A stretch of DNA of 53,172 bases from an uncultured Methanosarcinales archaeon (GTDB lineage Archaea > Nanobdellota > Nanobdellia > Woesearchaeales > GW2011-AR9): assembly GCA_964598745.1 (NCBI GenBank), contig CAZRCV010000005.1, forward strand, positions 1 to 53,172, given 5' to 3'. Each line of letters begins with the position of its first letter. The stretch's first letter is position 1. The translations under genes and the position numbers were made by a program. This document shows, one piece after another, positions 9,387-52,835 of the stretch. The notes beneath the pieces were generated by a model, which saw only the letters and a list, made by a program, of their open reading frames with translations, ran no database searches and was not told the origin of the DNA.

Positions 9387-10832
9387 TTACGGCCCAATTA
9401 CATTATAACCTCCTGCTTTCAAGTTTACCACAGTTGGTGAGTTCTTGCAGGAAGAGGGAAATTTGTAGAGATTCAATGGAGGTAAATAGTATAATGGATC
9501 ACGATCATAACTATCCTTTCCAATATCTTCGCTAAAGTCAGCCGTTTTGTAAATTTCAAAATGCAGGTGGGTTCCATCGCCGCCAGAACCAGATACAGAA
9601 AAACCAGTATTGCCCATTCCACCAATTTGTTGCCCCACAGTTACCGGCGCGTTCTGATTTATATTAACTGTATCTAAATGCTGATATCTGGTATAAGTTC
9701 CATCAGCATGTTCTAAAATGATATAGTTTCCATAACCTGAATTACAGGGGTTCTGTCCAGGAGCGCAATTTGCTTCTACAATAATAGCTTTTCCCGCAGC
9801 CACAGCTTTAATTGGCGTCCCTTTAACACCATCCAAATCCAAACCATCATGCCATTGCTGATTATTTAAGGTACGATATCCATAACATGAGGTTATTATT
9901 GGATTATCAATCGGCCAGACTTTGGTTGCTGAGGAGGTATCCCTTAGGACTACCGAAGACGAACCGCTAATAGATTGCAATACCCATCCCGCAGAAGGAT
10001 CCCAGTCTTTGCCTTGAAAGCTAACAGACAAATCTTTCAATAAATAACTAATTTGACTCCAGACATTATCAATCTCGTTACAAGTAGGTGAGTTGCAGCT
10101 GCGAGCTAGGGGGGAACTGCCAACAACGTCAGTTAAAGTCTGACCCGGTTTAATTTCTACTTCAGTAAAACTAGTTTCCCAAGCTTTAGTGTTAGAATTC
10201 CAAAATACATTATAGACCTTACTGCCATCGCAAACTAATCCCCTTACTGCTTCAGAAATTCTAAAAGGGTCGTTAGCCATCCCAGTTCCAATTAACTTAG
10301 ACGATGGTAAAGAATTAGACCAACTAGAACCATCCCACTGTTTAGGCTGGCAATTGATATCAACTCCAACTAGCGCACCACTCCAATGATAAGGGTTAGT
10401 TGAAGAGCCATCACCATCTAATAAAGCGCCAACTTGCATACTGGAAACAGTAGTTCCAATACTAGAACTTGCTGCTGAAACCGGAGGCAAGCCTAGAATA
10501 AACAATCTCACTCCAAACAGAGTTCCTTGAGAACTTAATTCTTGAAAATAATTTAACCCTTGTTGTTCATTCTTTCCAAACAAGCTGGCTTTAATTTCTG
10601 GATGTATTCTTCCATTCGACACGGGTTGAATATCATCACTTTCCCAAACCCCCCAATAGCGATACTCCCATTTCCCCTGCTGAGCATTAAATCGATAGTC
10701 CCCAGACTTTGTTTCAAAGAAATTAGAGAGAGAAGTTTCTGGATTTACAGTTATAACCTCACCAGCAGAATGAACCAAAGGTATCAACAATATCACTATT
10801 AAAAACAATGAAATTAACAATTTTCTAGTCAT
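9387..10832 (-). CDS. Secreted protein with C-terminal M23 family metallopeptidase (peptidoglycan DD-endopeptidase-type)
   Basis: Signal peptide; WPI..IITSCYGYR, HDGLDL (HxxxD), GYGNYIILEH, YQHL, GNTG, HLHFEI (HxH). Confidence 0.92.
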   Translation of the reverse strand: MTRKLLISLFLIVILLIPLVHSAGEVITVNPETSLSNFFETKSGDYRFNAQQGKWEYRYWGVWESDDIQPVSNGRIHPEIKASLFGKNEQQGLNYFQELSSQGTLFGVRLFILGLPPVSAASSSIGTTVSSMQVGALLDGDGSSTNPYHWSGALVGVDINCQPKQWDGSSWSNSLPSSKLIGTGMANDPFRISEAVRGLVCDGSKVYNVFWNSNTKAWETSFTEVEIKPGQTLTDVVGSSPLARSCNSPTCNEIDNVWSQISYLLKDLSVSFQGKDWDPSAGWVLQSISGSSSVVLRDTSSATKVWPIDNPIITSCYGYRTLNNQQWHDGLDLDGVKGTPIKAVAAGKAIIVEANCAPGQNPCNSGYGNYIILEHADGTYTRYQHLDTVNINQNAPVTVGQQIGGMGNTGFSVSGSGGDGTHLHFEIYKTADFSEDIGKDSYDRDPLYYLPPLNLYKFPSSCKNSPTVVNLKAGGYNVIGP

Positions 10833-11439
10833 GACGACACCTCAAATTCTTGAGTTAGAATTGTTTTCTGCTCAATTAGTGGATTTTCCAGGATTAGTTC
10901 CAAAGTGTATCCACCAGTTTCACCTTGGCCTACTAGTGTAAAAAAATCTTTAAAAGTGATGGTTTTAGAGGGGCTAGGGCTGCGTTCATTAACATAAAAA
11001 TTGTTGTTGGAACTAGCATCGAGCAACAATTTTCCGCTGGGATTTTTAATTCGATAATTTTTAACTATCATCACCTGACCATTTAAGGCAGTAGTTTCCG
11101 CTTGATATTTAAAGTAAACATTATCCCCGAACTTAAACTGCCGCTGCTGTTGGCAATTAAAATTATCGTCAATCTGCGAACAGAAAGAAAAGTCTTTAAT
11201 CTCTAAGTAACCATAATTGCGTAACGGTAAAAATTGCACGTTTAGCACTTCTACTGGTTCATATTCCGCTTTGACTGAAATCAGGCCGGCCTGGACTAAA
11301 ATAAGAACCAGAGCGCTAGTGATGATCGCTACAACTAAAATAGAAAGAATTCTTACAGCTATATTTCCTTTATTACTGTAGGTAAAAGCCGTTGCTTTAG
11401 TTCTAACCATTAATTCATGATTAATTGTAATAGTCATAT
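10829..11439 (-). CDS. Single-TM membrane-anchored protein with predicted beta-sandwich ectodomain (start uncertain; ORF track begins at 11488)
   Basis: One hydrophobic helix then beta-rich region; stop codon overlaps the start of the M23 gene (ATGA). Confidence 0.7.
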
Positions 11440-11441
11440 TG

Positions 11442-14400
11442 TTAACAATAATTGTGATTACTATATTTTTTACCAAAACTGCCATCAACTTGACAGAGGT
11501 AAATTGCTATTTTCTTGAATTCATTCTTGTTTTCTTCTGCCGATTCGTAAGGCGTTTGCACTGCCGAGGGCCGATCAAAGAAAATTGAAAGCAAAGAATC
11601 AACTTCTCGTTGATACAGCTGCGGATTATTGCGCTCTTTCTCTCCTTTCTTAATCGTGGCCGCTACACTATAATAAATTGCCAAGGCATTAGCTAAATCA
11701 CCGCGCCGCTGTGAAATAATGGAGTTAGCCATTAGCAGAACCTGATCATAGTTTTTGCGCTGGAACTGTTCAGCTATGCCCGCGCCCTGTTGGAATACTT
11801 GCTCTTCTTTCTGGATGGTTATTAATTTGGCAGCAGCAGTTCTTCCTTGAGTTGTTCTCACCGGCAGGGTAGCGTATTGACAACCGCCAGCTTCATCGGC
11901 TTCCAACAATTGATACTGCACGGTAAATTGCCTAGTGTTAAGTTGCTGACTGGAGAAAGCTGCAGAACTAATGCGATACTCACAGAAATTCCTATTCTGT
12001 TCAGCACGAAGATCGTTAACATTGCGGATAACAGCAGTTACTTTTTCTCCACCCATGTTGAAAACAATCTTATTAATTTCACTCTCAGTAAACTTATTTT
12101 GGCTGCCACTAACCAATAAACTGCCTGAACCAGCATTAGCACCGGGGGCATAACCGGGAGTTTCAGGGAAAGTTCCCTGCATCTGCACTTGGAAAGTTCC
12201 ATCGCCTTGATCAATAAAAGTCAACCTGTAAGAACCACTGGCCGAAGAGGCAGTTGAACCGGGGATAAATCCTAAACCACAGCCGCGATTACTGATATCA
12301 CCAGCTAATTGAATACTGCTGCTGACTCCGCTAAACATAGAAGGATCTACAGTAGTAAGCACGTCAGGAATGATGAGTTGGCCAGGAGTGTTAGCTGGAA
12401 GAGGCCGGATAAATGGTGGATCATTCTGCACACCCGGAATTAACGGAGTAACAGTGCGCCGGAGGCATTTAGCATTATTATCTAAATTTACATGCACCCC
12501 TAATTTGATCGGATCGGTGGTACTAGCAACAAACAAATTAGGAGTATCGCAAGTCGTCCAGGCATTAGTATTTTTATTCCAGCAGCTGATCTGCGGTTCT
12601 TCAATGAATGCTCCGCCGAATCCAAGCAAGTTGCTTAGCTCTGGACAATGGTATTCTCCAGTAAGTAAATTAGCCTGGCAAGAAATTTGCGCTGGAGGGG
12701 AGGTATCCACCAACGGTTCATAGAACACGCCTTTAACTCCATCAAAATATCCTTCTTCAAAACAATTTTTAGCATTATCTTTTTCTAATTGATCCAAATA
12801 CAACTCTACTTTAACGTGATCGTAACGGTATGGAGCATCTACCTTGAGGGGAGATTCCAGTGGGATGCTGAATAGTTCTCCTGATTTAAGATTAAACCCG
12901 CTTTTTAATAAATATTCTTTCTGTCCAACGCCGCTGCTTTGCCCTTGGGCATTGAGACAGTCGCAGCCTTGGCCGCCGCAAGAAGAATCAACTCCGGGCT
13001 TGCTTAAATCCTCCGGACCAATGCATTTTAAGGAAAGTTTCCAGTTTCTCACTATACAACCTGGCATAATCACCCCCCCAATGTTATAATTAAATACTGC
13101 TGTTTGTCGGGCCGGGTTTACTGTACTTAATTCGCGCTGCCGCGGCCCTAATACTACAATGGACTTGGTAGGGAAAGTGTAAGCTGCATCCAGCAAGAAA
13201 TCAGTGCTAAACAAAGGAAATTCTATCCCAAAAGCAGCTAAGCACATCGATTGAGCAAACCCTTGCGCTCCTTCCCTGAAGTATTCGTTTAATTTAGCAT
13301 TGCCATAATCTCTTTGCACGTCGTTAATAGAATCCTGTAGAGCTTGAGGAATAGCTTTAAACCCTTGAGAAATAACCTCACCAGCATCGCCAAAAAGGTT
13401 GCCCTCTTTTTCTTTATCATCAAAAGTCAGCGGACTGCATTGATTACTTAGATAAGCAATGCCTTGGTACAGCAAACCGCAAACATGCTGGGTGAACAAA
13501 GTTTTGCAAGCACCGGCATCCTGCAAGCCAGTATATTTGGCTGAAACTAGGCAGTTACGCATGCCTACCAAAATACTGTTAAGAACTTTTAAATTTTTTA
13601 AAATACCAGATAAGCAAACACTTTGGAAAGTGCCGATCAATTGCGTATGCGGATTAACTTCATGCACTTCTTTTTCGCTGCCTAGATAATCCAACAAGTA
13701 ATCAGCGCCAAATGCGCCAGAGAAATCCCGGCCGGCATAGTATCTTTCTTTAGGATAATAAGTGCCAACAGTTCCTTTAGACTCCTTGAAAATTTGATCT
13801 TCGCGGAAAGAGTAAATTTCTTCCGCGCCATCCACGCTAGCCATAGCTGTGCGCAAAGTTCTATCTGTACTGGGGGGTATGGAAGATAAATCTGGTTGTT
13901 TTCCAGCGCAAACACATTGCTGGAAGACCGGCCTGCCATTTTCTCTAGCAATGTCGGCGGCGCTGCCTGGTTTATGAGGATCATAACCTTTAATGAAACA
14001 ATCTTTAGTATACCCTGCGGGATAACGGTTTTTAATTAATTTAGTATCGCCTCTCTCTAAAGTTACAGTTCCATCGGCTTGCACTTGTTCATCATAACAG
14101 CCTTCCATAACATATTGGTCTATTTTATTGCTGGTGCGGCAGAGATCAGCGCAGGTCACATCGCGAGCTACCATAAACGATTCTGATCCTTGCGGCTTGT
14201 AGACTAGCAGCGTATCTCCTTCTGGAACCAAACCGCCAAATAAATCTCCGACAGGTGTAAGAACATATATTCCGTTTTTATTATCGGTGGGATTTTGCAG
14301 AGCTGGATTTTTGTAATAGACAATATTTCCTGCCCGCCAACAAGTTCCGCCGGTTTCACTAACCTTAGTTGCAGCTACCGATAAGGTAGCTTTAGTAGCG

Positions 14401-16751
14401 CTGGAAGAAGGATTAGCCACGGCCGGAACTTGATTAATTATATTTGATTGAACATACTGTTGACAATTTTCAATAGGTGTCAGCGGCACGCCTTTGCCAG
14501 TCACAGCGCACTGCTGCTGCTTTAAAATTACCGTGCCAATCTTGTCTAACGATTCGCTAGCCGTCCACCCTGCCGGAACAGCCCGACAAAAGGAACGGTC
14601 CCAGCTCCAACGGTAAGCACTGTTCAATGAACTTTCCAACTTCCAAGCCGAAGCGGTCTGCGGACAATGCTCTTCTAAAGTAATGGTTTTCCCAGGTTCA
14701 CTGTCGGCTCCGCCAGCATTGCAAGCTGCTAGCACCGTAGAAGGAAGGTCTGAACTGTAAGCATTATGATTCCTAATTAAATCGCACCAGTTTTCAATAG
14801 TTTCGCGTAAATACAACTTGGATTGCGCAGCGACTTCTGGACATCTGGGCTGTTTGTCACTAGTTTTGCCAGCTATAGCTGTTGCCAGAGAAAAGTAAGC
14901 TTCCACTCGCGAAGTTACCAGCCGCGACCAGTGAGCTGCGGTTTTTAACACAAAGGCAGCCATGGAAACCACGGCTGTTACCAGATAGACTTTTTCAATA
15001 ATTGGAGTTACGGCTTCCAACTGAGCAATAGTAAAGTTAAGCGCATCTACCCCCTCATTAGCCAGAAAATCTGGAATCAAATTCTTGCTGTCGATGGGAA
15101 TATCAACCTGATAGGCCAAATCATAGCAGGAAGCCTGTACTTTAGAAGCGCCCCAAGTGCCGTCATTTTGCCGTTCTTGGTAATTAACCGTAATTTTTAA
15201 AGGAAATGTTAATCGCCTATTTTTAAATTCATTCCAAAAATCTTCCTTGGATTTGCTAAACTCTTTTGTTCGGCCTAATTTCCAGGTGACATAAAATTTG
15301 GTGCCATCATTATTCTTTACTACATGATTAGCATTCGGAATAATACGACAGCCTAAACCATTTTTTTCATCTTTAACTTGATTTTGTGTACAAGCTTTTT
15401 CAATTTGTAAACTGCTTACCCTAAACCCTTGTTCTGTATCAATCGTTTCCTGAGCTGAACTATAACCATAACTTCCATAAGCCGGGCCAACACCACCCAC
15501 ACCATAATTGCCCGAGCTGTAAGAAGGGCTGTAAGCCGGAGCAGACTTAGATTTCCAGGGAATACCTGTTCCCTGATACTGCAAGTCAAACACTGCTTGA
15601 ATTTCCTGACGGCCACCGTCCAGCAGTTGTGGAACTAACCGCAATGGCAGCTGAAATTGCGGCATGGACTGAATAGCAAAACTAAAGTCGCCTGAGCTGC
15701 ATGAATTAACCCTAACTGTCTGCTGCAGATATACTATTTGTTGCTGTGCATCTTCAGAAATTATAAAGATTTGATAAGTTAATTGCTGCTGCTGATTTTC
15801 TCCCGAGCTAGAAAATAATACTACTTTTAACAAATCAGGAGGAACTTGTTTTGGAGCTAAATCTTCTAAACGCAGATTAGCTATATCAGTAATATCCCTC
15901 GCAAAATTAACTTCTTTAAACTTGAACTCGCCTTTAGAATCAGCCACCACTACCGCTCTAGCTTTAGAAAAATCAGGAACATACTGGTAACCTAGAGGAC
16001 GGAATACATAAAGGTATACTTTAGAGTTGGGTTTAGTCTGGCCGCTGATATCGGAACTAGCGCTATTTTCATAATATTCATTGCCATTTTCAATTTCAGC
16101 GCGGACAAATTGTTTTTGCAAGTCAGCAGTTAAGACCACTTCTTGAGTAGCATTAAAGCCTACCTGGTCTGTAGCTGTAACCTTAAGGTTATTAACTCCA
16201 TCTTCTAAAGAGATTACTTTGTCAATCTTCTGCCCTTTGCTTTTAACTACAGAATGTTCATTAAGAAAAATTTCATAAGAACTTTCTTCCGAGATTGTTC
16301 CGGTTATCGTTAAAGAGCGCTCTGTCACTATTTTTGGCAGCTGATTGAGGGTTATTACTGGTGGCTGTAAATCGGAAATAATTTTGCCTTCTACTGATGC
16401 TTCATTCCCTGCGCTATCAACTGCAGTTACTGATACTACATGAGTTTCCTGCTCTTTTAAAATAATAGTGACAGTGAACTTACCCTCTTTATCAGCTTTA
16501 GCCAAAGCCTTCACTGTAGAATCGGCTGTAACCTTAATTACTGCCTCTGGCTCAGAAGAACCGGATAAAACTAAACTAGTTCCAGCGATTATCTCAGGAA
16601 ATTTTACTTCCAATTCCGGCGGGGTTTTATCAGCGCTGCTAGCAGGATCCGATCCTGAAGCAGAAACTTCTTGAGCTGCAGCTAAAGGAAGATTAAACAA
16701 TAAGAAGATAAGGAACAAGGCGGTGATTGAATTTAAGTTTTTCTGATTCAT
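11442..16751 (-). CDS. Giant (1769 aa) surface protein: signal peptide, 2-3 bacterial Ig-like repeats, long Cys-rich body
   Basis: DKTPPEL..G.SEP.A...V.AVDSAGN and DLQPPVI..G..N.LKVTATDQVG Ig-like repeats; many paired Cys. Confidence 0.8.
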   Translation of the reverse strand: MNQKNLNSITALFLIFLLFNLPLAAAQEVSASGSDPASSADKTPPELEVKFPEIIAGTSLVLSGSSEPEAVIKVTADSTVKALAKADKEGKFTVTIILKEQETHVVSVTAVDSAGNEASVEGKIISDLQPPVITLNQLPKIVTERSLTITGTISEESSYEIFLNEHSVVKSKGQKIDKVISLEDGVNNLKVTATDQVGFNATQEVVLTADLQKQFVRAEIENGNEYYENSASSDISGQTKPNSKVYLYVFRPLGYQYVPDFSKARAVVVADSKGEFKFKEVNFARDITDIANLRLEDLAPKQVPPDLLKVVLFSSSGENQQQQLTYQIFIISEDAQQQIVYLQQTVRVNSCSSGDFSFAIQSMPQFQLPLRLVPQLLDGGRQEIQAVFDLQYQGTGIPWKSKSAPAYSPSYSSGNYGVGGVGPAYGSYGYSSAQETIDTEQGFRVSSLQIEKACTQNQVKDEKNGLGCRIIPNANHVVKNNDGTKFYVTWKLGRTKEFSKSKEDFWNEFKNRRLTFPLKITVNYQERQNDGTWGASKVQASCYDLAYQVDIPIDSKNLIPDFLANEGVDALNFTIAQLEAVTPIIEKVYLVTAVVSMAAFVLKTAAHWSRLVTSRVEAYFSLATAIAGKTSDKQPRCPEVAAQSKLYLRETIENWCDLIRNHNAYSSDLPSTVLAACNAGGADSEPGKTITLEEHCPQTASAWKLESSLNSAYRWSWDRSFCRAVPAGWTASESLDKIGTVILKQQQCAVTGKGVPLTPIENCQQYVQSNIINQVPAVANPSSSATKATLSVAATKVSETGGTCWRAGNIVYYKNPALQNPTDNKNGIYVLTPVGDLFGGLVPEGDTLLVYKPQGSESFMVARDVTCADLCRTSNKIDQYVMEGCYDEQVQADGTVTLERGDTKLIKNRYPAGYTKDCFIKGYDPHKPGSAADIARENGRPVFQQCVCAGKQPDLSSIPPSTDRTLRTAMASVDGAEEIYSFREDQIFKESKGTVGTYYPKERYYAGRDFSGAFGADYLLDYLGSEKEVHEVNPHTQLIGTFQSVCLSGILKNLKVLNSILVGMRNCLVSAKYTGLQDAGACKTLFTQHVCGLLYQGIAYLSNQCSPLTFDDKEKEGNLFGDAGEVISQGFKAIPQALQDSINDVQRDYGNAKLNEYFREGAQGFAQSMCLAAFGIEFPLFSTDFLLDAAYTFPTKSIVVLGPRQRELSTVNPARQTAVFNYNIGGVIMPGCIVRNWKLSLKCIGPEDLSKPGVDSSCGGQGCDCLNAQGQSSGVGQKEYLLKSGFNLKSGELFSIPLESPLKVDAPYRYDHVKVELYLDQLEKDNAKNCFEEGYFDGVKGVFYEPLVDTSPPAQISCQANLLTGEYHCPELSNLLGFGGAFIEEPQISCWNKNTNAWTTCDTPNLFVASTTDPIKLGVHVNLDNNAKCLRRTVTPLIPGVQNDPPFIRPLPANTPGQLIIPDVLTTVDPSMFSGVSSSIQLAGDISNRGCGLGFIPGSTASSASGSYRLTFIDQGDGTFQVQMQGTFPETPGYAPGANAGSGSLLVSGSQNKFTESEINKIVFNMGGEKVTAVIRNVNDLRAEQNRNFCEYRISSAAFSSQQLNTRQFTVQYQLLEADEAGGCQYATLPVRTTQGRTAAAKLITIQKEEQVFQQGAGIAEQFQRKNYDQVLLMANSIISQRRGDLANALAIYYSVAATIKKGEKERNNPQLYQREVDSLLSIFFDRPSAVQTPYESAEENKNEFKKIAIYLCQVDGSFGKKYSNHNYC

Positions 16752-18724
16752 TTTATTTCTGGCAAAGGAATAAGTTGGCTCTTAGCTGGCAAATCTAGGA
16801 ATAACTGAAACTGTTCATTCTCGCTTAATCCTTCTTCAGCCAATACATGAAAAGTTATCTCTTGAGCGGATTCCAATAAACTCCAAGGAACATTCCATTT
16901 ACTGTTGTAGCCGCCAACAATTGCTTCATCTTCTAGCAAGTTAATTTCTAAATCATAAGTAAAGTCTGCTTTGCCTAGCAGAGCTAGAGTATCTTGAACC
17001 GTAAATTGTTCTCCTATAGCCGGCGATTTAACCGCAGTTACTTCATGAACTGGCGGCATGGTTTCATTCGGCCTGAATTTTAAGGTAATGAGAGCTACCT
17101 CTTGTTGATCCATTTCTTGAGATATACCAACTCGATTATTTCTAAAAGTATGTTTTACTACTTTGATCTTGTTTAGGGGAATGACCTTAAGTGGCAGCAA
17201 ATTTAATTCAATTTCTTGTTCTGCACGGCTGGCTAGCAAAACATAATTTTCTTTATAATTTTCTTTCGTGCCCCTTAATATCGCCCCAGAACAATATGGA
17301 AAGTTGGTTTTGAAAGCAGCTACATGGCCCAGCCCAGCATAACCATATTGTGTTTTTCCCATATCACAGCTGTATCTCAAACAGTTATATTTCAGGTCCA
17401 CACCAGACAACGGCCAGCGATTATAAGCTCCAGTCTGAGAATTTTCCACTAATTCGTAAGTTTTAACGGTCATGGGAATGGTAGCATCGCTACAATACTG
17501 ATCATCACCATAAGTATCAAAATAAGTAGAACGTTTAGTAAAAGTAGTCGCGGAACGATCGGCAATATTATTCTTTAAGTGAACGGTAGTTGCCAACTTT
17601 AAAGTATATCCAATTGTTTCATCGGTTATTTCGATCTGCACGGGAAATTCTAGATTGTAAACGAATTTCCAAGTTTGCAAGCATAAAGCAGAAGTTAAGT
17701 CGTTCTGGCCTCCGATCTGGTTGCTAGTAAGATATTGGCCGCTACGCGGCGTAACCTCAAAAGTGAAGGGAAAGTTATCCTCAAAGCTAAACTTGGCTGA
17801 AAGTTGAGGATGCAATACATCATCTTCCAAGTCCCACAAATAATGATTCTGATAATAAGTTAATTCCTTGGGAAAAGAAACAAACTCTGTTTCCTTAATT
17901 TTTAATTGAGGGATATTGGTCTTGAGTAGATTTTTAATGCCCTGCCTGACGGTATCAATCCTCCAGCGTTTTTCACTACAGCTAAAGGCAGTACCAAACA
18001 ACGGTACATCAGGATGCTCTAAGGCAAGTAAATCTTGAGTTAGATCTTCCAATTTTAATTGGCGTAGTTCGCGGTTAACTATAGCCGCAGCCAAATCTCT
18101 AACAGCTTTAAGCCGGATAGGTGAATCAACAGAAAAGTGTAATAGTTCAGCTACAATCTCACCATTCTGGTCTTTTACTTGGATATTCCAATCCACAGCA
18201 AAAATGATTTTTTGATCTACAATTTTAGTGTCAGCTAAAACTGGCGATTGCTCTTTTAAAACATAATTTTCTTGAAAGGCTGGAGTGCTTAGAACGCAAC
18301 GCCCCAGATTCTCCTCAATATGGCGGTTAAGCCGATCCTGCAAGTCCTTTATGGATGGAATGTCAGCAATTTCTCCATAAGCCCAATAGGGTATGAAAGT
18401 AAAAGGAGAAGTTTTAAGATGCAAATTTGCATCGTTAGCTATAGGAGATGGCACTTGGATAAAACCGCCTTGCTGTCCCATCAAGAATAAGCCTTCATTG
18501 GAAACTATTTCCAAGCAATGGCTAACAAAACTTTCTACAGAACCGCGCTCCACTGGAACAATTTCTTGTTTTCCGAAGGTTACAACTTGTTGCTGCAGAG
18601 CGATGATGACACCTACTGCAAAAATCAGTAAAATACCAATAATAATAAAGGTTGTAACTTGACCTTTTTTACAAGAAAATAGCTTAGCTTTACCTCTACT
18701 ATCCCTCTTTTGGTGCATGAGCAA
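16748..18724 (-). CDS. Large protein with class III (archaeal pilin/archaellin-type) signal peptide
   Basis: KKG|QVTTFIIIGILLIF prepilin-peptidase motif followed by a hydrophobic helix; Cys pairs in the ectodomain. Confidence 0.8.
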   Translation of the reverse strand: MLMHQKRDSRGKAKLFSCKKGQVTTFIIIGILLIFAVGVIIALQQQVVTFGKQEIVPVERGSVESFVSHCLEIVSNEGLFLMGQQGGFIQVPSPIANDANLHLKTSPFTFIPYWAYGEIADIPSIKDLQDRLNRHIEENLGRCVLSTPAFQENYVLKEQSPVLADTKIVDQKIIFAVDWNIQVKDQNGEIVAELLHFSVDSPIRLKAVRDLAAAIVNRELRQLKLEDLTQDLLALEHPDVPLFGTAFSCSEKRWRIDTVRQGIKNLLKTNIPQLKIKETEFVSFPKELTYYQNHYLWDLEDDVLHPQLSAKFSFEDNFPFTFEVTPRSGQYLTSNQIGGQNDLTSALCLQTWKFVYNLEFPVQIEITDETIGYTLKLATTVHLKNNIADRSATTFTKRSTYFDTYGDDQYCSDATIPMTVKTYELVENSQTGAYNRWPLSGVDLKYNCLRYSCDMGKTQYGYAGLGHVAAFKTNFPYCSGAILRGTKENYKENYVLLASRAEQEIELNLLPLKVIPLNKIKVVKHTFRNNRVGISQEMDQQEVALITLKFRPNETMPPVHEVTAVKSPAIGEQFTVQDTLALLGKADFTYDLEINLLEDEAIVGGYNSKWNVPWSLLESAQEITFHVLAEEGLSENEQFQLFLDLPAKSQLIPLPEIK

Positions 18725-18829
18725 ATGGATAGTTTAACGATTTATAAAATTATGGGTAAGTTATAGAGATAGACGTATTACTAAGGTTCATTTCTGATGG
18801 AAGTATATTAATTAACTTTTACTAAATTT

Positions 18830-29347: not shown

Positions 29348-29439
29348 GGCGGCTGTCGTATAATGGTCAGTATGCAGGTCTGTGGAATTAGCTTTGCAGC
29401 AAACCTGTGGAGGGGGTTCGATTCCCCCCAGCTGCCCCA
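29348..29439 (+). tRNA. tRNA-His(GUG) with encoded G-1, encoded CCA and a 16-nt intron at 37/38 (29386-29401)
   Basis: Acceptor G-GCGGCTG/CAGCTGC-C-CCA; anticodon stem CAGGT/ACCTG; T-arm GGGGG TTCGATT CCCCC; BHB central helix CTGT/GCAG. Confidence 0.93.
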
Positions 29440-44302: not shown

Positions 44303-45700
44303 ATGAAAAAGGAGTTGATACTACTATTAGGTATAATATTTCTAGTTATACCTCTTAGCTTAGCGGACTTAAATAGTGGCATTCCCTGCGCTGCTGATGG
44401 CAATTGCGTCGCTTGTGAAAGTAGCTACCAAAATCAATACCGATGTTATTGTTATAGTCAAACCAATACTTGCTGGATTAACACTTCTTCTCTAGGATCG
44501 AACCAAGCAACTGGACAGCCAGATGACACTTTAACTGCTCCTAGTTCAACCAACAATCAACCTAATTTAACTGCAGTTACCAGTGATAGCGGTTCTTTAC
44601 AAACAGCCTTGGGAATGTTGCAGCAGCAAGTATCGGCTTCCGATTCTAGAAACCAGCAACAGCTGACGACTTTGCAATCCAGTTTAAGTTCGCTACAGCA
44701 ACAGGTTTCGCAATTAAGCCTGCAAGTGCAGAGTGTTTCCTTGCAAGAAGGACAAGTTAGCAGTTTGCGCACTGAGCTAGGTTCTGTATCTTCCGGGTTG
44801 GCTTCGTTGCAACAGAATTTTGATTCTACCAAATCCGAGCTAAGCGCTATTGAAAATAATTTTAAGAACGAACAGAAAAGAACTAAACTGCTTTCTGGGT
44901 TGGTTTACAGCCTGGTAGTGCTGGCAGCAGCTGGCACATTAGTTTATTTCATCAGCAGCAGAAGACGCAAGATTGACCCGCAGATCTTAAAATATATTAC
45001 TAATCATCTAAAAAAAGGAGCAAGGTATCCTGAAATTAAAGCCAATCTCCAAAACGCTGGTTGGGGTGTAGAAGATATCGACTGGGTTTACCAAGCTACT
45101 TTAAAACATTATCGGAAATATCACTCTGAAAATAACAATAGAACCAACTTTGATAAAAATAAAATAGCAGGAATATCAATTGTAAGCATCCTAATTATCG
45201 TTTCTTTGATATTTCTGCTGAAAGGGATAACCACTGGCCAAGCTATCAGATTTGAAACAGAAGAAGAATTAAGCCGGAACGTGCTGCAAACATTACAGAG
45301 CCGCTTGGCCAACAATCAATTCTATAATTTAGTGCAATCTGCAACGCTATGTGTAGAAGTAAAAGATGGGCTAAAATCAGTTTCCTATCGGATCGTTAAA
45401 ACAATGGCTGGCCAAAGCATTGATCCTGCGCTTCGTTCATGCTCTGAAGATACCAATTATAATGCAGCAGTTAAATTCACCGGCTGGAATAGCTTTGAAC
45501 ACTTAATGAATGACTTTACCTGCAGAACAGCCAGAGAATTACATCTAGAACGAAATGGAATTAGGGGAATATATGTATTGCCATCACAATTAGTACTTCC
45601 TGGATTTAGAAAAAATCCACAAGTTAACTACCAGCTATTTTGTCCGCTGCTTAGGGCCTGCTTAACACCAACAGAACTAGCCGTGTTAGGATGCAATTAA
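44303..45700 (+). CDS. Membrane/surface protein: signal peptide, Cys knot, coiled coil, TM, 'L..AGW..DI' domain, TM, Cys-containing ectodomain
   Basis: Architecture read directly from the translation. Confidence 0.75.
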   Translation: MKKELILLLGIIFLVIPLSLADLNSGIPCAADGNCVACESSYQNQYRCYCYSQTNTCWINTSSLGSNQATGQPDDTLTAPSSTNNQPNLTAVTSDSGSLQTALGMLQQQVSASDSRNQQQLTTLQSSLSSLQQQVSQLSLQVQSVSLQEGQVSSLRTELGSVSSGLASLQQNFDSTKSELSAIENNFKNEQKRTKLLSGLVYSLVVLAAAGTLVYFISSRRRKIDPQILKYITNHLKKGARYPEIKANLQNAGWGVEDIDWVYQATLKHYRKYHSENNNRTNFDKNKIAGISIVSILIIVSLIFLLKGITTGQAIRFETEEELSRNVLQTLQSRLANNQFYNLVQSATLCVEVKDGLKSVSYRIVKTMAGQSIDPALRSCSEDTNYNAAVKFTGWNSFEHLMNDFTCRTARELHLERNGIRGIYVLPSQLVLPGFRKNPQVNYQLFCPLLRACLTPTELAVLGCN

Positions 45701-45801
45701 GTGATTATACTAGAAAACCACTATAAATTGTGGCTTGCGGAGATAAGATTATAGCAAATTATATAAATCTAGTTAGGCTGTTTATAACAGAAAAGAGGAA
45801 G

Positions 45802-47544
45802 ATGGAACGCAGCCATTGTTATATTATAGTATTAAGCTTATTACTATTAGCTGTTGTTCCTGCAATCTTTCTTTCTGTTAATACGAGTTCTTTAACTGGG
45901 TTGGCGGCCGCAGAACCGGTCGCACCGATGCCGTTAGCTACAGAAGAGTCAGTAAACCTTCTCAAAACTCAAGTGAACCAACTGCAACAAGAAATAACTT
46001 TAATACAGAGCACTGCTGAGGCCAATGACCAAGAGATTAAAAGGTTAAATGGAAATATCCAAAGCTTAAATGCTCAACTAAGCCAGTTGCAACAAACAGT
46101 TGATGGAAAAATCAATTCCATTTCTACAGGGCTGGCTGGACTTCAGACAGAAGTAAAATCAACACAAAATGATTTATCACAGGTTAGGGCTTCCAGTGCG
46201 AGAAAAAATATTTTGTTAGCTGTTCTTATTTTGCTAATATTAGCTGCAACCAGTTGCGGAATCTACTTTTACCAAAAAGGGTTCTTTAACTCCAGAACTA
46301 CATCCCAACCTGCTAAAATGATGATGGACTTTATCACCAGGCAAATTAAACAAGGCAAAAAATTTCCGCAAATAAAGCAGGCTTTACTGCAAGCTGGCTG
46401 GAAGGATGAACAAATCAAGGAAGCTTATCAGGCCACCATGAACCAAAATTATCAGCAGTATCAAAAAAAAAACTATTCTGATCCCCTAGATAATTTAGAT
46501 AAAGATAAAATAAAAATTTTAGGCATCATTGGCATATTGGTTATTGTTACAATAATTATTGTGTTCTTAATTTATCGATCTTCTGCCACTGGACAAGCCT
46601 ACCAATTCTACGGGGGCGTGGCTGATTACGAAGAAGGGACCGGGTTAAACAGGGATATAACCCAACAACAATGTTTTCCGCCACGCCTCTTTATTCAAGG
46701 AGTTTGTTGCGACGATCGCAACCAAAACAATGTTTGCGACAGCAGCGATGGCTACCAGGAAACTGCCTTGGCTACTTATACTGGAACGCTCTATATCAGG
46801 CCAGCTTCTCCACAAGACATAGTACATAACCAGCAAATCATTATCGATTCGCAGGGTTTCAATCCTTCACCATTAAATGCCACCAGGGGAGATGTAGTTA
46901 ATTTTGTTAACCAGAGGCAGGAATCAGTCCGGATCATTCCAGGCACCGGATGTCCACCGATGAACAGCGGCTTAATTGCGCCAGGCAACACTTTTACTTG
47001 GGTGCCGGTTAATCCTGGAATTTGTTCTGTCACCCTAGGGACAGGAACCACAGGAGAGGCTTGCGCTGATAATTCTCAGTGCGCCAATGGCCGGTCTTGT
47101 GTGGATAACCAATGCCAATTCATTGCAGATCTGTATCAAACCAATAATTGTGGTGAATACTGCACGGTAATTAGAGTAAAGGTAGCAACATTTAATGTTG
47201 ATTCCGCCGGCAATGATGTTCAGCAAAATTATACCCTGCGCATGGGCTTGGGAAGCTACACTGGAGGAGGAGCTTTAGATTGGACTATCCAACCTATGCC
47301 TGATTTTTGCAAACCTTCTTCTGCTAGTCGAATTCACCAGGAAAGCAATACTTGGCGAGCTGACATAGCCATCCCTTTCGAGCTGAGAGAATTTAATAAT
47401 GGCAACTTGCTTTCTGCTAGGACTGAAACCGTTAACACTAGACAACAAAAGGCAATCAGCCACAGCCAGTTAAACTTAAACCAGTTTAGACTGCAAGTTC
47501 AAGATGTCCATTTGACTTGCGGTGGACAAACTGTTTTTGGGTAA
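45802..47544 (+). CDS. Paralogous membrane/surface protein with coiled coil, 'L..AGW..QI' domain, CC.D.N.N..CD motif and cupredoxin-like module (likely start 45802)
   Basis: GAGGAAG before ATG 45802; shares motifs with the upstream gene; GFNP..L....GD.V.F.N...SG.I.PG..F. Confidence 0.75.
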   Translation: MERSHCYIIVLSLLLLAVVPAIFLSVNTSSLTGLAAAEPVAPMPLATEESVNLLKTQVNQLQQEITLIQSTAEANDQEIKRLNGNIQSLNAQLSQLQQTVDGKINSISTGLAGLQTEVKSTQNDLSQVRASSARKNILLAVLILLILAATSCGIYFYQKGFFNSRTTSQPAKMMMDFITRQIKQGKKFPQIKQALLQAGWKDEQIKEAYQATMNQNYQQYQKKNYSDPLDNLDKDKIKILGIIGILVIVTIIIVFLIYRSSATGQAYQFYGGVADYEEGTGLNRDITQQQCFPPRLFIQGVCCDDRNQNNVCDSSDGYQETALATYTGTLYIRPASPQDIVHNQQIIIDSQGFNPSPLNATRGDVVNFVNQRQESVRIIPGTGCPPMNSGLIAPGNTFTWVPVNPGICSVTLGTGTTGEACADNSQCANGRSCVDNQCQFIADLYQTNNCGEYCTVIRVKVATFNVDSAGNDVQQNYTLRMGLGSYTGGGALDWTIQPMPDFCKPSSASRIHQESNTWRADIAIPFELREFNNGNLLSARTETVNTRQQKAISHSQLNLNQFRLQVQDVHLTCGGQTVFG

Positions 47545-49172: not shown

Positions 49173-52100
49173 ATGGTCCTCCGTTCTTTATGTTCTTTAG
49201 TAGCAGCAATGATTGTAGGTTACGCAGTTCCAGCTAAAGCATATGGACAAGATATTGGAAACAACACTAAACCTGTTATCACCAGCACAGCTAGCACCAA
49301 ACCTTTTGAAGACAATTTAATTTTCTTAGGACCTAAAGTTAAAGCAAGAGCGCAAAATTTGGATTTATCGGTTAAACCAGATCCAGCCAATTCCTGTCCC
49401 TATCCTTCATTAATCTTAGAACCTGAACAACCCTTTCCATTCGAACTTGTCGCTTCTCCTAATTTTTTAGAAACAGGGATTAATTCCGAAGATAAAAAAT
49501 CTTCAGATCATTATCAAAGATTAGTATTGGAAATTGTTAGTCCGAATATATCCTGTCTACCTAAGGCTGCAGCGAATTTTACTGATTTAACTTCGCAAAC
49601 AACAGAAATTTCTTTATTTCCAGATTACGGGGATTGGCAAAATAAAACAGGCAGCAGCACCATGGAAATAAGATTAGAATTGCCTGGTGATTTACGCTAT
49701 GTGCTGCTGGGCTCTGATCACAATAATATTATTTATGAAAGGGGTGGCCTAGCTTACGATCTAAAAGACAAACGCATTAGGCTTCACACCGGCGAAGGAA
49801 ATCTCAGCAGACATCTACCCCAGTTAAGTTTAGAACGTCTGGCCATCGGTTCAATGAACTGGCCAGCATTTACTGATGCGATACTGGGAAAGGGAACAGA
49901 TAGTTTAAGACTGGCTACGAACCACTTGGGGAATTCACTAGAAACTTTGGCAAACCAAGTAGTAACCAACCTTAATCTCAGTGATGAAACTGGCGATCTA
50001 AATGCCCGCGCTATTGAATTAACTTTAAAACTGCGCGGCATTTTTGAACAAGTCTTACCACAATATGTTTCTAATGATGGAGTGGTTGACCCGGAAGAGT
50101 GGAGTAAAATCCAAGAGACTATAGAAGGAAAAATCAAGGAGTTTGAAGCGCGAGAATTAAAAACAGAAGAAAGGGAAGGCATAACTAGCGCGATTAATGG
50201 ATTTCGAGAAGAATTTCAGAGCCTGCAGAAAGAACACCCCATTCTAGCAAATATTTGGTCTATCTATGGCTCTGCTGATCCGGCCGCATTAATTAGCTGG
50301 GATGGAATTACTTTAAGAAATTTGATAACCTTTTTTGCAGCTTTAGATCCCGACTTATACACTCTGACAGTTGAAGATAATAAATTAGGATTCAAAACCA
50401 ATCGGCTTAATAGCACGCTAGTAGGACAATCATCTAATTATACTGAATTTACTGATGGAATTAACAGAACTTTTATTGAAACTGCAGCTGGAAGATTAGC
50501 CATGGAAGCTGCAGGCGATATTAGTTTAACTGCAGCTTTAAGCGAAGGTTTGGAAATTGAAGAAATAGTTCCAGAAAAATATCAAAATAGTTATGGTCTT
50601 TTAAAATTAATATTAGGGATAGACCCAAAACTAGTAAATATGACTTTAAACGGCGAAGCGCATTTTGCATCACGGCTGCATGCGGAAAGGATGCGAGGAT
50701 TTAGCATGAGGTGGAACAAAAACAAATTATCTTTAGGCTTAAACATTTCTTTTGGATCATTATATGGCAATTATGCTAACGGACAAGCCCAAGTGGCTGG
50801 TTCTGCCGATAGCCAAAATGATTTAATTAGTGCTTATTTTATGGGGGGTTTGCAGATAGAACAAGTGTTAGGTTCAAAGCAAACCATCAGCCTAAATTTA
50901 GATAAAATGAATAATGTCTTCTGGTTCAATCTTCAGCTAGGAATGGACCTAGAACAAGCCCGGCGGTTAAGAGAATCTTGGCTCGCTGGCGGCGTGTTTA
51001 AAGCCGATTATCGAGGAAATATAAGCCAAAATGCTTATTATTTAGCTCATTCCAAAGATATTACTACTAACAATACCCTTAATCCCCTTGCAGGATTACG
51101 AGTGGGCCGAACACTGGGGTTAGTTGATATCCTAGCCTTTACAGATCTCAGAGAATTAGGCCTGGGCGCCATTTTAGCCAGCCCACGGATCTCAGCCTTA
51201 GCAGAATGCGCATTTATCAATTATTGTCAGCTAACAGCTAGAATAGCTTTGGATAGAGAATTTAACCCAAAAAATGAACGAAACCATTTTTTACGCCTGC
51301 AGCAGTTAGCTAACACCCATTTAGCGGGAGTAGAAGCCATTATAGCTGGCGAGAATCATTACCACACCCTTGCTAATCCTGGCTTACATTTAGAACTTCA
51401 AGCTTATCGAGCTTTAGTTTCACAATTTCCATACCTTACACCCTCTAAAGCTAAATTAAGTTTAGTAATGGTCGAACCAGATAGTGTTGATAGCTTAAAT
51501 TTATATTTTGCATTAGGCTATGACGGAAATTTTGATTCCGTTAACGGTGGATTGATTAATTTAGGATCAAGATATTGGCAAAGTTTCTTTGGTTATACTG
51601 CGACTAAAGATCAGCTGAGGAACTCCAATTCACAATATGGCACTGCCGGGTTAACAGTACATACTAAACCTATCGATATTCTAACTAGAGCAGAACTATA
51701 CCCAGATCCATTGGATGAAGAGCCAGAGGTTAAATCTTCGACCAAAGTTGATCCTAATACCCAACAGAAAATAGAAACTTATAGTTTAAAACATGAAGGA
51801 GAATTTAGGATGTTGGTGGAAATTAGAGCACCCCCTGGGTTTTTAGACGAATTGTTAACAGCAATCCCACGACCAGAATTACGGTTGCTGCAGGTGACAG
51901 CTGAAAAAAGTTTGCTGTTGCTGGAGGGAATTAATGGTGGACTAACCTCAGACTTCACTTTTGGAAGGTTATCGCTGCATCAACAAGTTGGAACTACTTA
52001 TTCCGATGCTAGGGGAACTTCTTTCGATTGGGAAGGAGAAGCTATTTATAGGTTGATTAATGGAGAAATTGGCCCAGCTTTAACTATCTCCAAACAATGG

Positions 52101-52412
52101 AGTCCAGAAAACAATTCTCATCGTCTTTCGCCAGGCCTAGGCTGGCAAGCTGCCAATAAAGGCCATTATTTAAACTTATTAGTTACAGGAATACCACCAC
52201 AATTTTCCTTGCGTTATATTTACGATCCCAAAACTGCAGAATTAGCTCCTTATGTTAAGGCGGGCCTTTCTAATTCCCAAGGACTATTAGAGCTGGGTGT
52301 ACGAACTGGACCCATGATCTTTACTACAGAAGTTGGATTCATTCCAAAAGGTAAACAAGATTTAGAATTTACATTAGGGTTAAAAACAACGGTTGACCTA
52401 ACTTCATTTTAG
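49173..52412 (+). CDS. Large exported protein (1079 aa) with a beta-strand-rich C-terminal half ending in Phe
   Basis: Signal peptide (AKA|YG); alternating hydrophobic/polar strands; TTTATATATA upstream. Confidence 0.75.
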   Translation: MVLRSLCSLVAAMIVGYAVPAKAYGQDIGNNTKPVITSTASTKPFEDNLIFLGPKVKARAQNLDLSVKPDPANSCPYPSLILEPEQPFPFELVASPNFLETGINSEDKKSSDHYQRLVLEIVSPNISCLPKAAANFTDLTSQTTEISLFPDYGDWQNKTGSSTMEIRLELPGDLRYVLLGSDHNNIIYERGGLAYDLKDKRIRLHTGEGNLSRHLPQLSLERLAIGSMNWPAFTDAILGKGTDSLRLATNHLGNSLETLANQVVTNLNLSDETGDLNARAIELTLKLRGIFEQVLPQYVSNDGVVDPEEWSKIQETIEGKIKEFEARELKTEEREGITSAINGFREEFQSLQKEHPILANIWSIYGSADPAALISWDGITLRNLITFFAALDPDLYTLTVEDNKLGFKTNRLNSTLVGQSSNYTEFTDGINRTFIETAAGRLAMEAAGDISLTAALSEGLEIEEIVPEKYQNSYGLLKLILGIDPKLVNMTLNGEAHFASRLHAERMRGFSMRWNKNKLSLGLNISFGSLYGNYANGQAQVAGSADSQNDLISAYFMGGLQIEQVLGSKQTISLNLDKMNNVFWFNLQLGMDLEQARRLRESWLAGGVFKADYRGNISQNAYYLAHSKDITTNNTLNPLAGLRVGRTLGLVDILAFTDLRELGLGAILASPRISALAECAFINYCQLTARIALDREFNPKNERNHFLRLQQLANTHLAGVEAIIAGENHYHTLANPGLHLELQAYRALVSQFPYLTPSKAKLSLVMVEPDSVDSLNLYFALGYDGNFDSVNGGLINLGSRYWQSFFGYTATKDQLRNSNSQYGTAGLTVHTKPIDILTRAELYPDPLDEEPEVKSSTKVDPNTQQKIETYSLKHEGEFRMLVEIRAPPGFLDELLTAIPRPELRLLQVTAEKSLLLLEGINGGLTSDFTFGRLSLHQQVGTTYSDARGTSFDWEGEAIYRLINGEIGPALTISKQWSPENNSHRLSPGLGWQAANKGHYLNLLVTGIPPQFSLRYIYDPKTAELAPYVKAGLSNSQGLLELGVRTGPMIFTTEVGFIPKGKQDLEFTLGLKTTVDLTSF

Positions 52413-52783
52413 AGAAATTTTGAAAACATAGATTTTCCTATTACAATTAGGTCTTAAAAGGATAGGATAAAAAGTGAGGGCTCCAAAGAGGGGGTGAGGG
52501 TGGTAGAATAATTCTATGGAGCCCACGGGATTAGGAAATCCGAACCCCTTGCACTGGATTCGGAAAGTGCATACTCAACGTTGATTACAATTGCACCTCT
52601 TTTTCCTTATTTGTGCATAAATGTAGACAAATATATAAATGTTGCTATTCTGTATACTAGCTTACTAAAAATACCTCTTAGGTCTAAGAAATTAAGAAGA
52701 ACAGCTTATTTTTGCCAGCTGCAGTACAGACTTCGTTAAGAAATCAAAGGGCTGATTTTGTACTACTAGTAAATGGCGAAATA

Positions 52784-52794: not shown

Positions 52795-52835
52795 CCTTTA
52801 ATTTGCTAACTGGTTTATCAAAATTCATAGTCAAA

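Follow-up and report, generated by a model that had tools for sequence, protein, structure and literature searches.

The window analyzed here, a 53,172-nucleotide stretch of DNA that makes up contig C5 of a 1.0-Mb genome (99% complete, 46 contigs), contains four minus-strand genes at positions 9387-18724, read here as a single operon that specifies a cell-surface module in an archaeon of the Woesearchaeota type. Our analysis gives solid grounds for a family-conserved four-part surface module, the fourth part being an enzyme against bacterial envelopes that carries a tag and can be swapped. As to its use, we lean, at somewhat better than even chances, toward a prepilin-anchored surface module that carries plug-in enzymes against bacterial envelopes in the service of life on, or feeding from, bacteria.

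A preliminary description of this DNA, made from the sequence alone, had pointed to four co-oriented genes, and all four open reading frames (ORFs) are present on the minus strand: gene 1 (16748-18724; 658 aa from a TTG start or 656 aa from an ATG at 18718), gene 2 (11442-16751; 1769 aa), gene 3 (10829-11488; 219 aa from a TTG start, with the ATG codons at 11437 and 11410 as likelier starts), and gene 4 (9387-10832; 481 aa). The ATGA stop/start overlaps at 16748-16751 (genes 1 and 2) and 10829-10832 (genes 3 and 4) were read directly, and the gap of a few nucleotides between genes 2 and 3 was likewise confirmed, since 4 nt separate the TAA stop codon of gene 2 (11444-11442) from the first ATG in the frame of gene 3. 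The DPANN-like archaeal setting also held: the window encodes TFIIB, GatD, a thermosome subunit, PAC2, and archaeal ribosomal proteins, the genome is of the small size given above, and the sequence-matched relatives carry the titles of Candidatus Woesearchaeota, Nanoarchaeota, or Nanoarchaeia metagenome-assembled genomes (MAGs). Many other relatives are labelled "uncultured Methanosarcinales" by the depositor, a label at odds with the kinship found here.

Genes 1-3 are conserved within the family

A homologue of gene 1 was found in 60 of 61 related genomes (family, 36/36; other families of the order, 23/24). Twenty loci were fetched, and genes 1, 2, and 3 occurred in this order in all 14 of those from the same family. 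A profile of gene 2 then yielded 71 further loci in public MAGs; gene 1 lay upstream in 67 of these, with contig starts accounting for the four misses, and gene 3 lay downstream in 66, with four misses at contig ends and one locus in which it was not found. The same profile was detected in 40 of 41 same-family genomes, the miss with this query being G008 (95% complete). On a wider scale it matched 199 of 401 sampled genomes of the phylum at E<=1e-10, a tally that includes five unpublished genomes (G271, G272, G345, G381, and G417), which were used for no other result. Full-length strong matches were those of the own family (the same 40/41) and of a few neighboring families, and matches in other orders of the class were weak only (E 1e-11 to 1e-18). 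The flanks are shared as well: as in the window, the cluster of relatives is preceded by PAC2 and in many cases has Fpg behind it. Co-occurrence in related genomes, which the preliminary description had proposed as a check for all four genes, was thus seen for genes 1-3 (14/14 loci) and for an enzyme gene after them (58/71), but not for the M23 peptidase itself; the M23 part of gene 4 adjoined the cluster in none of the 20 loci first examined.

Gene 4 encodes a predicted peptidoglycan endopeptidase

The 481-aa product of gene 4 consists of an N-terminal hydrophobic signal peptide, an N-terminal region, a motif shared with other proteins at this position, and an M23 peptidase. The catalytic domain (Peptidase_M23, PF01551; 9540..9851, minus strand; aa 328-431) scored 80.6 bits (cut-off, 28.7 bits; E 1e-22), and the residues His328 and Asp332 (HDGLD), His385 (YQHL), and His422 and His424 (HLH) are intact; their roles are presumably those of the counterparts in LytM and lysostaphin. 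The earlier assignment of a secreted M23 peptidase with HxxxD and HxH motifs is therefore upheld by the signal peptide, the domain match, and these residues. The best solved relatives were DipM, zoocin A, and lysostaphin, and the alignment shows that the first His, absent in the top match DipM, is kept in gene 4. Its nearest M23 relatives are bacterial, at no more than 50% identity, and the named ones are mostly from Paenibacillus, many with G5 and LysM domains; the whole protein formed a singleton cluster. Gene 4 is the sole M23 gene of the genome and has no SLT domain, and the genome profile search was also without an SLT match. Judged by sequence, the M23 part is an endopeptidase of the bacterial type with all catalytic residues, for which peptidoglycan cutting is predicted.

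Profile searches of the 99%-complete genome, in which positive controls were detected, revealed no Mur_ligase_M, PBP transpeptidase, or FtsW/RodA (SEDS) match. Because murein-synthesis genes are absent, the M23 enzyme is left without a home substrate of the murein or pseudomurein kind. A role as an autolysin on the cell's own wall was considered and ruled out on the same lack of Mur ligase, PBP, and SEDS genes.

An enzyme slot marked by a shared motif follows gene 3

The ORF after gene 3 varies between genomes, and its members are secreted proteins that have in common a Cys/Trp motif of ~55 aa. In gene 4 this motif (9921..10106, minus strand; aa 243-304) reads C-x4-C-x-E-I-D-x-V-W ... G-x-D-W-D ... 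G-W, and across the slot proteins it takes the form C-x4-5-C-x-E-I-D-x-V-W ... G-x-V-W-D ... W. A hidden Markov model (HMM) built from 32 seeds scored 47.1 bits on gene 4, which was the single match in a six-frame search of its own genome (E 3.6e-13); scans of gene 4 and the slot ORFs placed no Pfam family over the motif itself. The HMM matched 53 of 62 slot ORFs at a domain E <0.01, across different catalytic domains, and the nine left unscored comprised five enolases, two SLFN/AlbA_2 proteins, one 147-aa ORF, and one GDSL protein. When six-frame translations of the 71 public MAG loci were searched, 58 had a motif ORF, in every case past gene 3 and in the same orientation. Contig ends account for 10 of the 13 misses, the others being L085, L095, and L107 (weak). 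Two motif genes stood in tandem in six loci, and within the proteins the motif was located at the N terminus, in the middle, or in the C-terminal half.

The Pfam domains found in the slot include SLT, M15_4/VanY, Amidase_2, M23, GH25, Phage_lysozyme2, Hydrolase_2, Glucosaminidase, Polysacc_deac_1, and DUF2272, the last of these described in part of a published analysis as papain-like and grouped with NlpC/P60-CHAP amidases, Tse1 among them (PMC10318531); GDSL/SGNH, DUF218, Metallophos, Exo_endo_phos, Lipase_3, and FGE-sulfatase-like domains were found in addition. By hand count, a peptidoglycan-acting Pfam domain was present at E<=0.001 in 44 of 63 motif ORFs (42/57 loci) and at or above the Pfam gathering score in 35 of 63 (34/57 loci). 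A search of 1.84 billion representative proteins with the motif profile gave 262 matches at E<=0.001, 71 of them at E<=1e-10. An automated Pfam tally of the best 70 of the 262 listed FGE-sulfatase 20 times, GDSL and SLT 17 times each, DUF2272 11 times, Metallophos 8 times, M15_4 and Phage_lysozyme2 5 times each, M23 4 times, Polysacc_deac_1, DUF218, and 3D twice each, and Amidase_3, Amidase_2, M74, Lysozyme_like, and Hydrolase_2 once each. As read from these domain assignments, the catalytic parts of the slot are exchanged between species and span at least 10 peptidoglycan cutting or modifying families together with SGNH esterases, phosphoesterases, and lipases.

The exchange is seen at close range in the closest relative, L042, whose genes 1-3 are ~60% identical to those of the window and whose motif gene encodes DUF2272 instead of M23. 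Its motif protein matched gene 4 at 53% identity over 45 aa, that is, in the motif, with one weak N-terminal match besides (23% identity, E 0.002). Residues 138-291 of gene 4, in turn, share 32% identity with the N-terminal portion of a different motif protein, one that ends in DUF2272. Because the L042 match covers little beyond the motif and aa 138-291 resemble a DUF2272 member, we conclude that the catalytic end was swapped and the front kept.

These data bear directly on the view that there is no system at all, gene 4 being a recently transferred bacterial gene that came to lie beside surface genes by chance, or the contig being mis-assembled. The bacterial type of the M23 domain, the singleton cluster of the protein, and the absence of M23 at this position in the nearest relatives would be in keeping with that view, as would the reads, which were checked in four DNA runs of groundwater metagenomes from one study: among the listed contig pieces assembled from them, none bridged the gene 3/gene 4 junction by at least 31 nt. 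Gene 4, however, bears the very motif that is found after gene 3 in relatives and nowhere else in its genome, it shares the 138-291 region with another family member, relatives have the same gene order on the downstream side (bPH, Fpg), and one of the metagenome runs covers all 30 bins of the region. The view is largely refuted, and we give it next to no chance. A chimeric contig, raised as a possibility in the preliminary description, is made unlikely by the synteny on two flanks (PAC2 upstream, Fpg downstream) together with the family-specific motif inside gene 4. Origin from a mobile element or virus was ruled out, given syntenic housekeeping genes as flanks (PAC2, Fpg) and a GC fraction of 0.39-0.44 in the cluster versus 0.33-0.40 nearby.

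A more substantial alternative is scavenging, in which the surface complex of a metabolically poor archaeon digests free wall debris and dead bacteria for sugars, amino acids, and phosphate, with no specific living host. The breadth of the repertoire (glycosidases, amidases, endopeptidases, deacetylases, SGNH esterases, phosphoesterases, and lipases) resembles a degradative toolkit. The genome also has, at G000:C7:19282-20760 (minus strand), a 492-aa ORF with an Amidase_2 match (54.2 bits) and neither an N-terminal signal peptide nor the motif; its product may be a cytoplasmic muropeptide amidase, as would fit the uptake of wall fragments, and could process imported muropeptides. In bacteria, AmpD carries out such processing. 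Woesearchaeota have, moreover, been proposed to recycle microbial biomass, according to passages of PMC9723730. A free degradative enzyme, on the other hand, needs neither a conserved partnership with two prepilin-type proteins and a giant Ig-bearing protein nor a dedicated motif, one or two such enzymes per genome are few for general digestion, and the swapping of catalytic parts at the species level fits adaptation to particular walls. Scavenging is in our estimation unlikely, though by no means negligible.

Whether motif proteins act with gene 2 is touched by genome G079 of a neighboring family. Here (L118, G079:C4 5599-12096, minus strand) the motif lies inside a 2165-aa gene-2 frame, at aa 1943-1983, just past the end of gene-2 homology; the match is weak, at 17 bits, yet the eye readily picks out the pattern ...CDECQAIDEAW...GTYYNPASGRWE.... 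The C terminus of this gene 2 thus holds the variant motif and a Cys-rich tail of ~180 aa without a Pfam match. In a second genome of the same family, the variant motif is found in a secreted protein of its own, encoded 1.1 kb past gene 2. The fusion is a lead, not proof, that motif proteins may act with gene 2.

Other genes were encountered in the neighborhood of the slot. An enolase lies between gene 3 and the motif gene in L072, L074, L077, L078, and L108, and a non-secreted SLFN_AlbA_2 plus HATPase_c_4 gene does so in two same-genus relatives (L042:8586-9947 and L052:11677-13020); in every such locus with a continuing contig, the motif gene came next. The SLFN_AlbA_2 gene, which is defence-like, is absent from the window and must therefore have entered the cluster recently. 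An ORF of ~410 aa follows the enzyme gene in many other loci, and since the single one scanned (L108) is an enolase, enolase may be a common neighbor of the cluster. In L119 (G187:C4), a nucleotidyltransferase (NTP_transf_2) with a small partner ORF, a toxin-antitoxin-like pair, occupies 11703-12638 between gene 2 and the motif gene. The slot gene at L109:16060-25293 exceeds 3078 aa and runs off the contig end, with matches to SLT and VanY and weak ones to Amidase_2 and EF-hand; its product probably belongs to the SLT family of "up to 3,000 aa" mentioned in PMC8204110.

Genes 1 and 3 carry prepilin-type signals, and gene 2 encodes a giant Cys-rich protein

Class III (prepilin-type) signals were judged from the leader pattern, hydropathy, and orthologue alignment. 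Gene 1 begins with a charged leader, ...SCKKG/QVTTFIIIGILLIFAVGVIIAL (the slash marks the cleavage site), followed by a hydrophobic helix of ~25 residues with a hydropathy of 3.1 (18584..18718, minus strand). The class III signal protein (KKG/Q) of the preliminary description is thereby substantiated, and the signal is kept in orthologues: the N-terminal consensus of 29 aligned sequences is KKGQVTxFIILGI. In gene 1 of the window, position +5 of the mature protein is Phe/Ile. Gene 3 read from its ATG (10829..11437, minus strand; ~193-202 aa) has NKG/N, a hydrophobic helix, and a globular part of ~140 aa with two invariant Cys. In the window its signal reads NKG/NIAVRILSILVVAIITSALVLILV (NKG/NIAVR), with one hydrophobic helix, also of hydropathy 3.1. 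The pattern M-x-KKG/xxxxE followed by 20 hydrophobic residues is displayed by the gene-3 orthologues, most of them with Glu at +5 by eye, a residue typical of bacterial pilins that polymerize. The gene-3 alignment comprised 64 sequences. Gene 3 had been described as a single-transmembrane (TM) protein; the one hydrophobic helix agrees with this, but the orthologues reveal a second prepilin-type protein rather than just a single-TM one.

In an AlphaFold2 (AF2) model of gene 1 from 29 orthologues (pLDDT 83.4), the N-terminal helix is joined to an alpha/beta domain and to several beta-sandwiches. Neither Pfam nor NCBIfam assigned gene 1 to a family, NCBIfam had none for gene 3 either, and ESM Atlas matches of gene 1 were confined to unnamed Woesearchaeota/Nanobdellota clusters. 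Fold matches fell within aa ~410-514, a transthyretin/CnaB-like sandwich (best Z 10.3) that is common to Gram-positive pilins, SlaB, and many others; SlaB of Sulfolobus matched it with a Foldseek E of 5.9e-6 and a Z of 9.3 (rmsd 2.3 over 84 residues). For the N-terminal domain the fold search named no family, this domain being barely probed because the sandwich took up the lists. The first ~200 residues of gene 1, made up of the prepilin-type signal and first domain, recur at 1 to 12 matches per genome, including ORFs of ~250-1050 aa; the own-genome matches are G000:C11:10293-11708, C19:15679-16194, and C1:85853-86107. By this sequence similarity, the sharers of the gene 1 N terminus are an apparent expanded family of modular prepilin-type surface proteins.

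Gene 2 carries a Sec-type signal and, in its 1769 aa, 40 Cys, ~35 of which are invariant among 14 orthologues. The preliminary description of an Ig-repeat Cys-rich protein was correct as to length and cysteines, but Pfam Ig-like domains are confined to aa 55-210 (16122..16589, minus strand; Big_6, Big_13, and Glucodextran_B with E 4.6e-9, 2.7e-7, and 4e-6), so "Ig-repeat" is valid for the N terminus only. NCBIfam gave only sub-threshold repeat matches, including a Ca_tandemer repeat at 33.4 bits, below its cut-off. The conserved Cys-rich core (12252..15749, minus strand; aa 335-1500) was modeled with AF2 from a 66-sequence alignment (pLDDT 75.7, pTM 0.64) as beta-sandwiches and bundles of very long helices. 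With this core, Foldseek against the PDB returned 0 matches at E<=0.001, VIA-align reached a best Z of 7.2 with generic sandwiches or coiled coils only, and the ESM Atlas held no usable match. One helix of 66 residues (14874..15071, minus strand; aa 561-626) includes the moderately hydrophobic aa 583-606; that this segment is a conserved transmembrane helix was ruled out by hydropathy values of 0.6-2.1 across the 14 orthologues. At window positions 11813 and 12777, contigs of three of the four metagenome runs (X1, X3, and X4) match rightward and share one different sequence leftward, and a co-occurring strain may have another version of the gene 2 3' part and of what comes after.

The folds invite comparison with a cell coat. 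On this account, genes 1 and 2 would be the anchor and lattice of the organism's own envelope, resembling a surface layer (S-layer) in the manner of SlaB and SlaA, with gene 3 as a further anchor and the motif as no more than a tie by which helper enzymes are attached. Across the order, genes 1 and 2 are kept as a pair beside housekeeping genes, gene 2 is large, secreted, and single-copy, and the gene 1 sandwich does match SlaB, among others. That match, however, is to a generic transthyretin/CnaB-like sandwich for which dozens of unrelated proteins give a similar Z, prepilin-type signals with Glu at +5 are typical of filament subunits and not of S-layer anchors, and the same-family genome G008 is, with this query, without gene 2. 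The ~35 invariant cysteines also count against it, being unusual for S-layer proteins. A coat of this kind is, on balance, distinctly improbable.

Assembly machinery and evidence against the favored reading

The genome contains one match to Peptidase_A24 (57.7 bits), on a contig other than that of the cluster, and one to the T2SSE ATPase (53.6 bits), on contig C2 versus C5 for the cluster. Adjoining the ATPase is a 631-aa ORF with ~9 hydrophobic TM segments. The A24 peptidase plausibly cleaves the products of genes 1 and 3, to judge from their signals. These signals, the A24 peptidase, and the ATPase of the T2SSE family could also be accommodated by a secretion device. Genes 1 and 3 would then supply the pseudopilins of a piston like that of type II secretion, gene 2 and the enzyme would be driven across the coat into the medium, and the enzyme would act as a diffusible, bacteriocin-like weapon against competing bacteria; secreted archaeal M23 hydrolases have indeed been shown to kill bacteria in work described in PMC12352652. 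Such a device is very unlikely here: its platform protein was not detected in the genome, the cluster lies apart from the ATPase, and a cargo role leaves the conservation and size of gene 2 unexplained.

Several observations weigh against the prepilin-anchored module that we favor. The T2SSF platform protein (PF00482) was not detected in the genome at E<=0.001, and the 631-aa ORF beside the ATPase had no T2SSF match even at E<=1. Type IV filament systems are sparse in DPANN, in the account that passages of a survey give (PMC13705601). A true filament is doubtful because of the missing T2SSF match and this sparseness; the same survey, in part, reports class III signals also on substrate-binding proteins that functionalize the cell surface. 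Gene 3 of the window has Arg rather than Glu at +5, and in the fold search with aa 335-1500 gene 2 displayed no adhesin or PilY1-like fold beyond its generic Ig-like domains. In all six loci of other families, gene 1 and a weaker gene 2 were present but neither gene 3 nor the motif was found, and among 301 genomes of the order the motif occurred in five, namely the own genome, three of four same-family genomes, and G079. Only the gene 1-gene 2 pair is old, then, the motif not having been found outside the family and one neighboring family. The tight coupling of gene 3 to the motif gene is not universal either, given the seven loci with an unrelated cytoplasmic gene between them (enolase in five, SLFN/AlbA_2 in two). 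With respect to substrate, 19 of the 63 motif ORFs show only SGNH, phosphoesterase, or FGE-sulfatase-like domains or nothing, and the range of the slot is therefore wider than murein or partly obscure. The second peptidoglycan-type amidase gene of the genome, described above, stands elsewhere and lacks the motif.

Proposed mechanism

The preliminary description had envisaged a pilus-associated attachment complex that delivers a wall-cutting enzyme. Its link between surface genes and peptidoglycan cutting is supported by the conserved genes 1-3, the enzyme slot, and the lack of murein synthesis, and is strengthened because the slot holds many bacterial-wall enzymes joined to a common motif; its pilus has fared less well, no T2SSF having been detected. 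In the module that we favor, the A24 prepilin peptidase of the genome would cleave genes 1 and 3, and the cleaved products would form, or serve to anchor, a short stalk that is pilus-like or fixed in the membrane. The stalk would carry gene 2 as a contact or adhesion element. The shared motif, proposed as a docking or recognition tag, would hold the enzyme on the structure, with gene 2 as the likeliest site of attachment. The enzyme would cut wall cross-links of the touched bacterium for attachment, for access to its contents, or for wall fragments as food. By exchanging the enzyme domain, species could adapt the module to the kind of wall that their partners have. A complex prediction of gene 1 aa 53-656 and gene 3 aa 45-193 with the gene-4 motif returned 0.00; made without controls and with an uncertain motif fold, it is neutral either way. 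A bolder version, which we consider possible but rather doubtful, makes genes 1-3 a contact organelle with which an archaeon would attack or tap bacteria, across the border between the domains of life. Its prepilin-anchored stalk would present the disulfide-rich gene 2, whose long helices and hydrophobic stretch would insert into or grip the bacterial envelope, with the motif as the plug that docks an acquired enzyme.

Relation to known systems

Secreted enzymes against murein in archaea that have none are on record, as the large extracellular SLT/GH23 proteins and other peptidoglycan hydrolases of Woesearchaeota, Pacearchaeota, and Nanoarchaeota, read as signs of episymbiosis or predation on bacteria in passages of PMC8204110, PMC9723730, and PMC12352652. 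Large SLT proteins are described for Woesearchaeota and Pacearchaeota (PMC8204110, in part), GH23 genes and a "vampiristic" lifestyle in PMC9723730 (in part), and, in portions of a survey (PMC12352652), peptidoglycan hydrolases are prominent in Nanoarchaeota, M23 occurs in four Nanoarchaeia genomes, and a haloarchaeal M23 enzyme kills bacteria by experiment. The slot proteins of relatives include such SLT proteins, one of them (L109) longer than 3000 aa. Gene 4 is a sister by its motif, and not a member by its catalytic domain, of the Woesearchaeota/Pacearchaeota SLT proteins (fam00969, in the portion of PMC8204110 that treats them); the window enzyme is an M23 peptidase and its genome is without SLT. 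The published SLT and hydrolase reports, in the sections that concern these proteins, treat single genes or one family, whereas here there are conserved neighbors, a ~55-aa motif, and exchange at a slot. The words "pilin" and "operon" have 0 occurrences in the main text of PMC12352652, as does "pili" in the main texts of PMC9723730 and PMC8204110. In the published text we found no account of the operon, motif, or slot, and supplements (e.g. of PMC8204110, PMC12352652, and PMC13705601) may list these families. As far as we have seen, then, hydrolases and a bacterium-linked lifestyle were already known, and the machine-level organization, the tag, and the domain exchange are new.

At the tips of type IV filaments, minor pilins associate with an adhesin of the PilY1/PilC type, a large Sec-secreted protein that is not itself a pilin. 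The cluster is similar in setting small and large prepilin-type genes beside a big Sec-dependent surface protein. Further resemblance to type IV pilins lies in the Glu+5 class III signal of most gene-3 orthologues and in gene 1, a pilin-type helix with grafted domains, an arrangement of which PilB of S. sanguinis is reportedly an example. The cluster differs in having no major pilin or platform gene (with no PF00482 match in the genome) and in including an enzyme gene. Gene 2 has no Pfam or NCBIfam match of the PilY1 kind, nor, in aa 335-1500, a fold match to the C-terminal beta-propeller of PilY1, and so the likeness is of role and gene context only.

Polymorphic effectors of the type VI secretion system (T6SS; MIX, FIX, and PAAR types) and of the type VII secretion system (T7SS; LXG type), with peptidoglycan effectors such as Tse1 among the effectors compared, combine a conserved marker or trafficking module with variable catalytic ends. 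The slot proteins likewise join a short conserved module to many envelope-targeting catalytic domains, lie beside presumed delivery genes, and are swapped between close relatives. Unlike those effectors, they have an archaeal producer, a motif that is new to Pfam and variable in position, Sec signals, and an unrelated delivery structure, and immunity genes are neither expected nor seen. Parallels in function are offered by the Tad-like Kil apparatus of Myxococcus xanthus, which kills prey on contact (PMC8460266), and by the type IV pili of Saccharibacteria, which serve episymbiosis (PMC11623550). There an ultrasmall or predatory microbe uses pilin-based surface machinery on a bacterial partner or prey, coupled to lysis of the wall or cell, and a like use is proposed here. 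Those systems are bacterial, have full assembly machinery, and have no fixed hydrolase slot in a pilin operon, in contrast to the two clustered prepilin-type genes of this archaeon. SlaA and SlaB of Sulfolobales (PDB 8qox) share with the cluster a membrane-anchored beta-sandwich stalk protein beside a very large secreted partner; the differences are an N-terminal prepilin-type helix instead of a C-terminal TM anchor, a single generic sandwich match, and a Cys-rich partner, and no SlaA match for gene 2 was among the fold-search rows for aa 335-1500.

Woesearchaeota are among the most widespread uncultured archaea, and single peptidoglycan hydrolase genes have been taken to hint that some of them live on bacteria. 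The present analysis moves the matter from that hint to a defined, conserved four-part genetic module, and the motif is a sequence tag with which the enzymes of the module can be found in any metagenome (262 representatives so far). If the favored reading holds, slot content should track partner wall chemistry, and the type of slot domain could serve as a predictor of host range. Were the contact organelle true, archaea would have their own plug-and-play equivalent of the machines that kill on contact, made of parts without known fold relatives. Two sizeable conserved protein parts, the N-terminal domain of gene 1 and the core of gene 2, are without a recognizable fold relative, and the slot enzymes are a natural collection of predicted archaeal enzymes against bacterial walls. 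Gene 2 or the motif offers a handle for imaging contact sites, and recombinant slot enzymes a handle on which walls are cut.

Other features of the window

A TATA-like box, TTTATAAA (18741..18748, minus strand), was read from the sequence ~27 nt upstream of the gene 1 ATG. Going by the usual spacing of archaeal TATA boxes from the start, it is a candidate archaeal promoter, with a predicted leaderless or short-leader transcript. The downstream end of the unit is marked by a convergent bPH-domain gene. Three plus-strand ORFs, at 49173-52412, 44303-45700, and 45730-47544 (1079, 465, and 604 aa), may encode further surface proteins; Pfam assigned no family to them, save for a weak DUF2207_C match on the 604-aa ORF. 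At 52773-53171 (plus strand), an ORF that runs off the end of the window has a Sigma-54 interaction (AAA+) domain (E 8.5e-16), which is unusual for an archaeal genome. A tRNA-His gene at 29349-29439 (plus strand) measures 91 nt by ARAGORN and 88 nt by Rfam and, because this exceeds the 71-position model, probably bears an intron.

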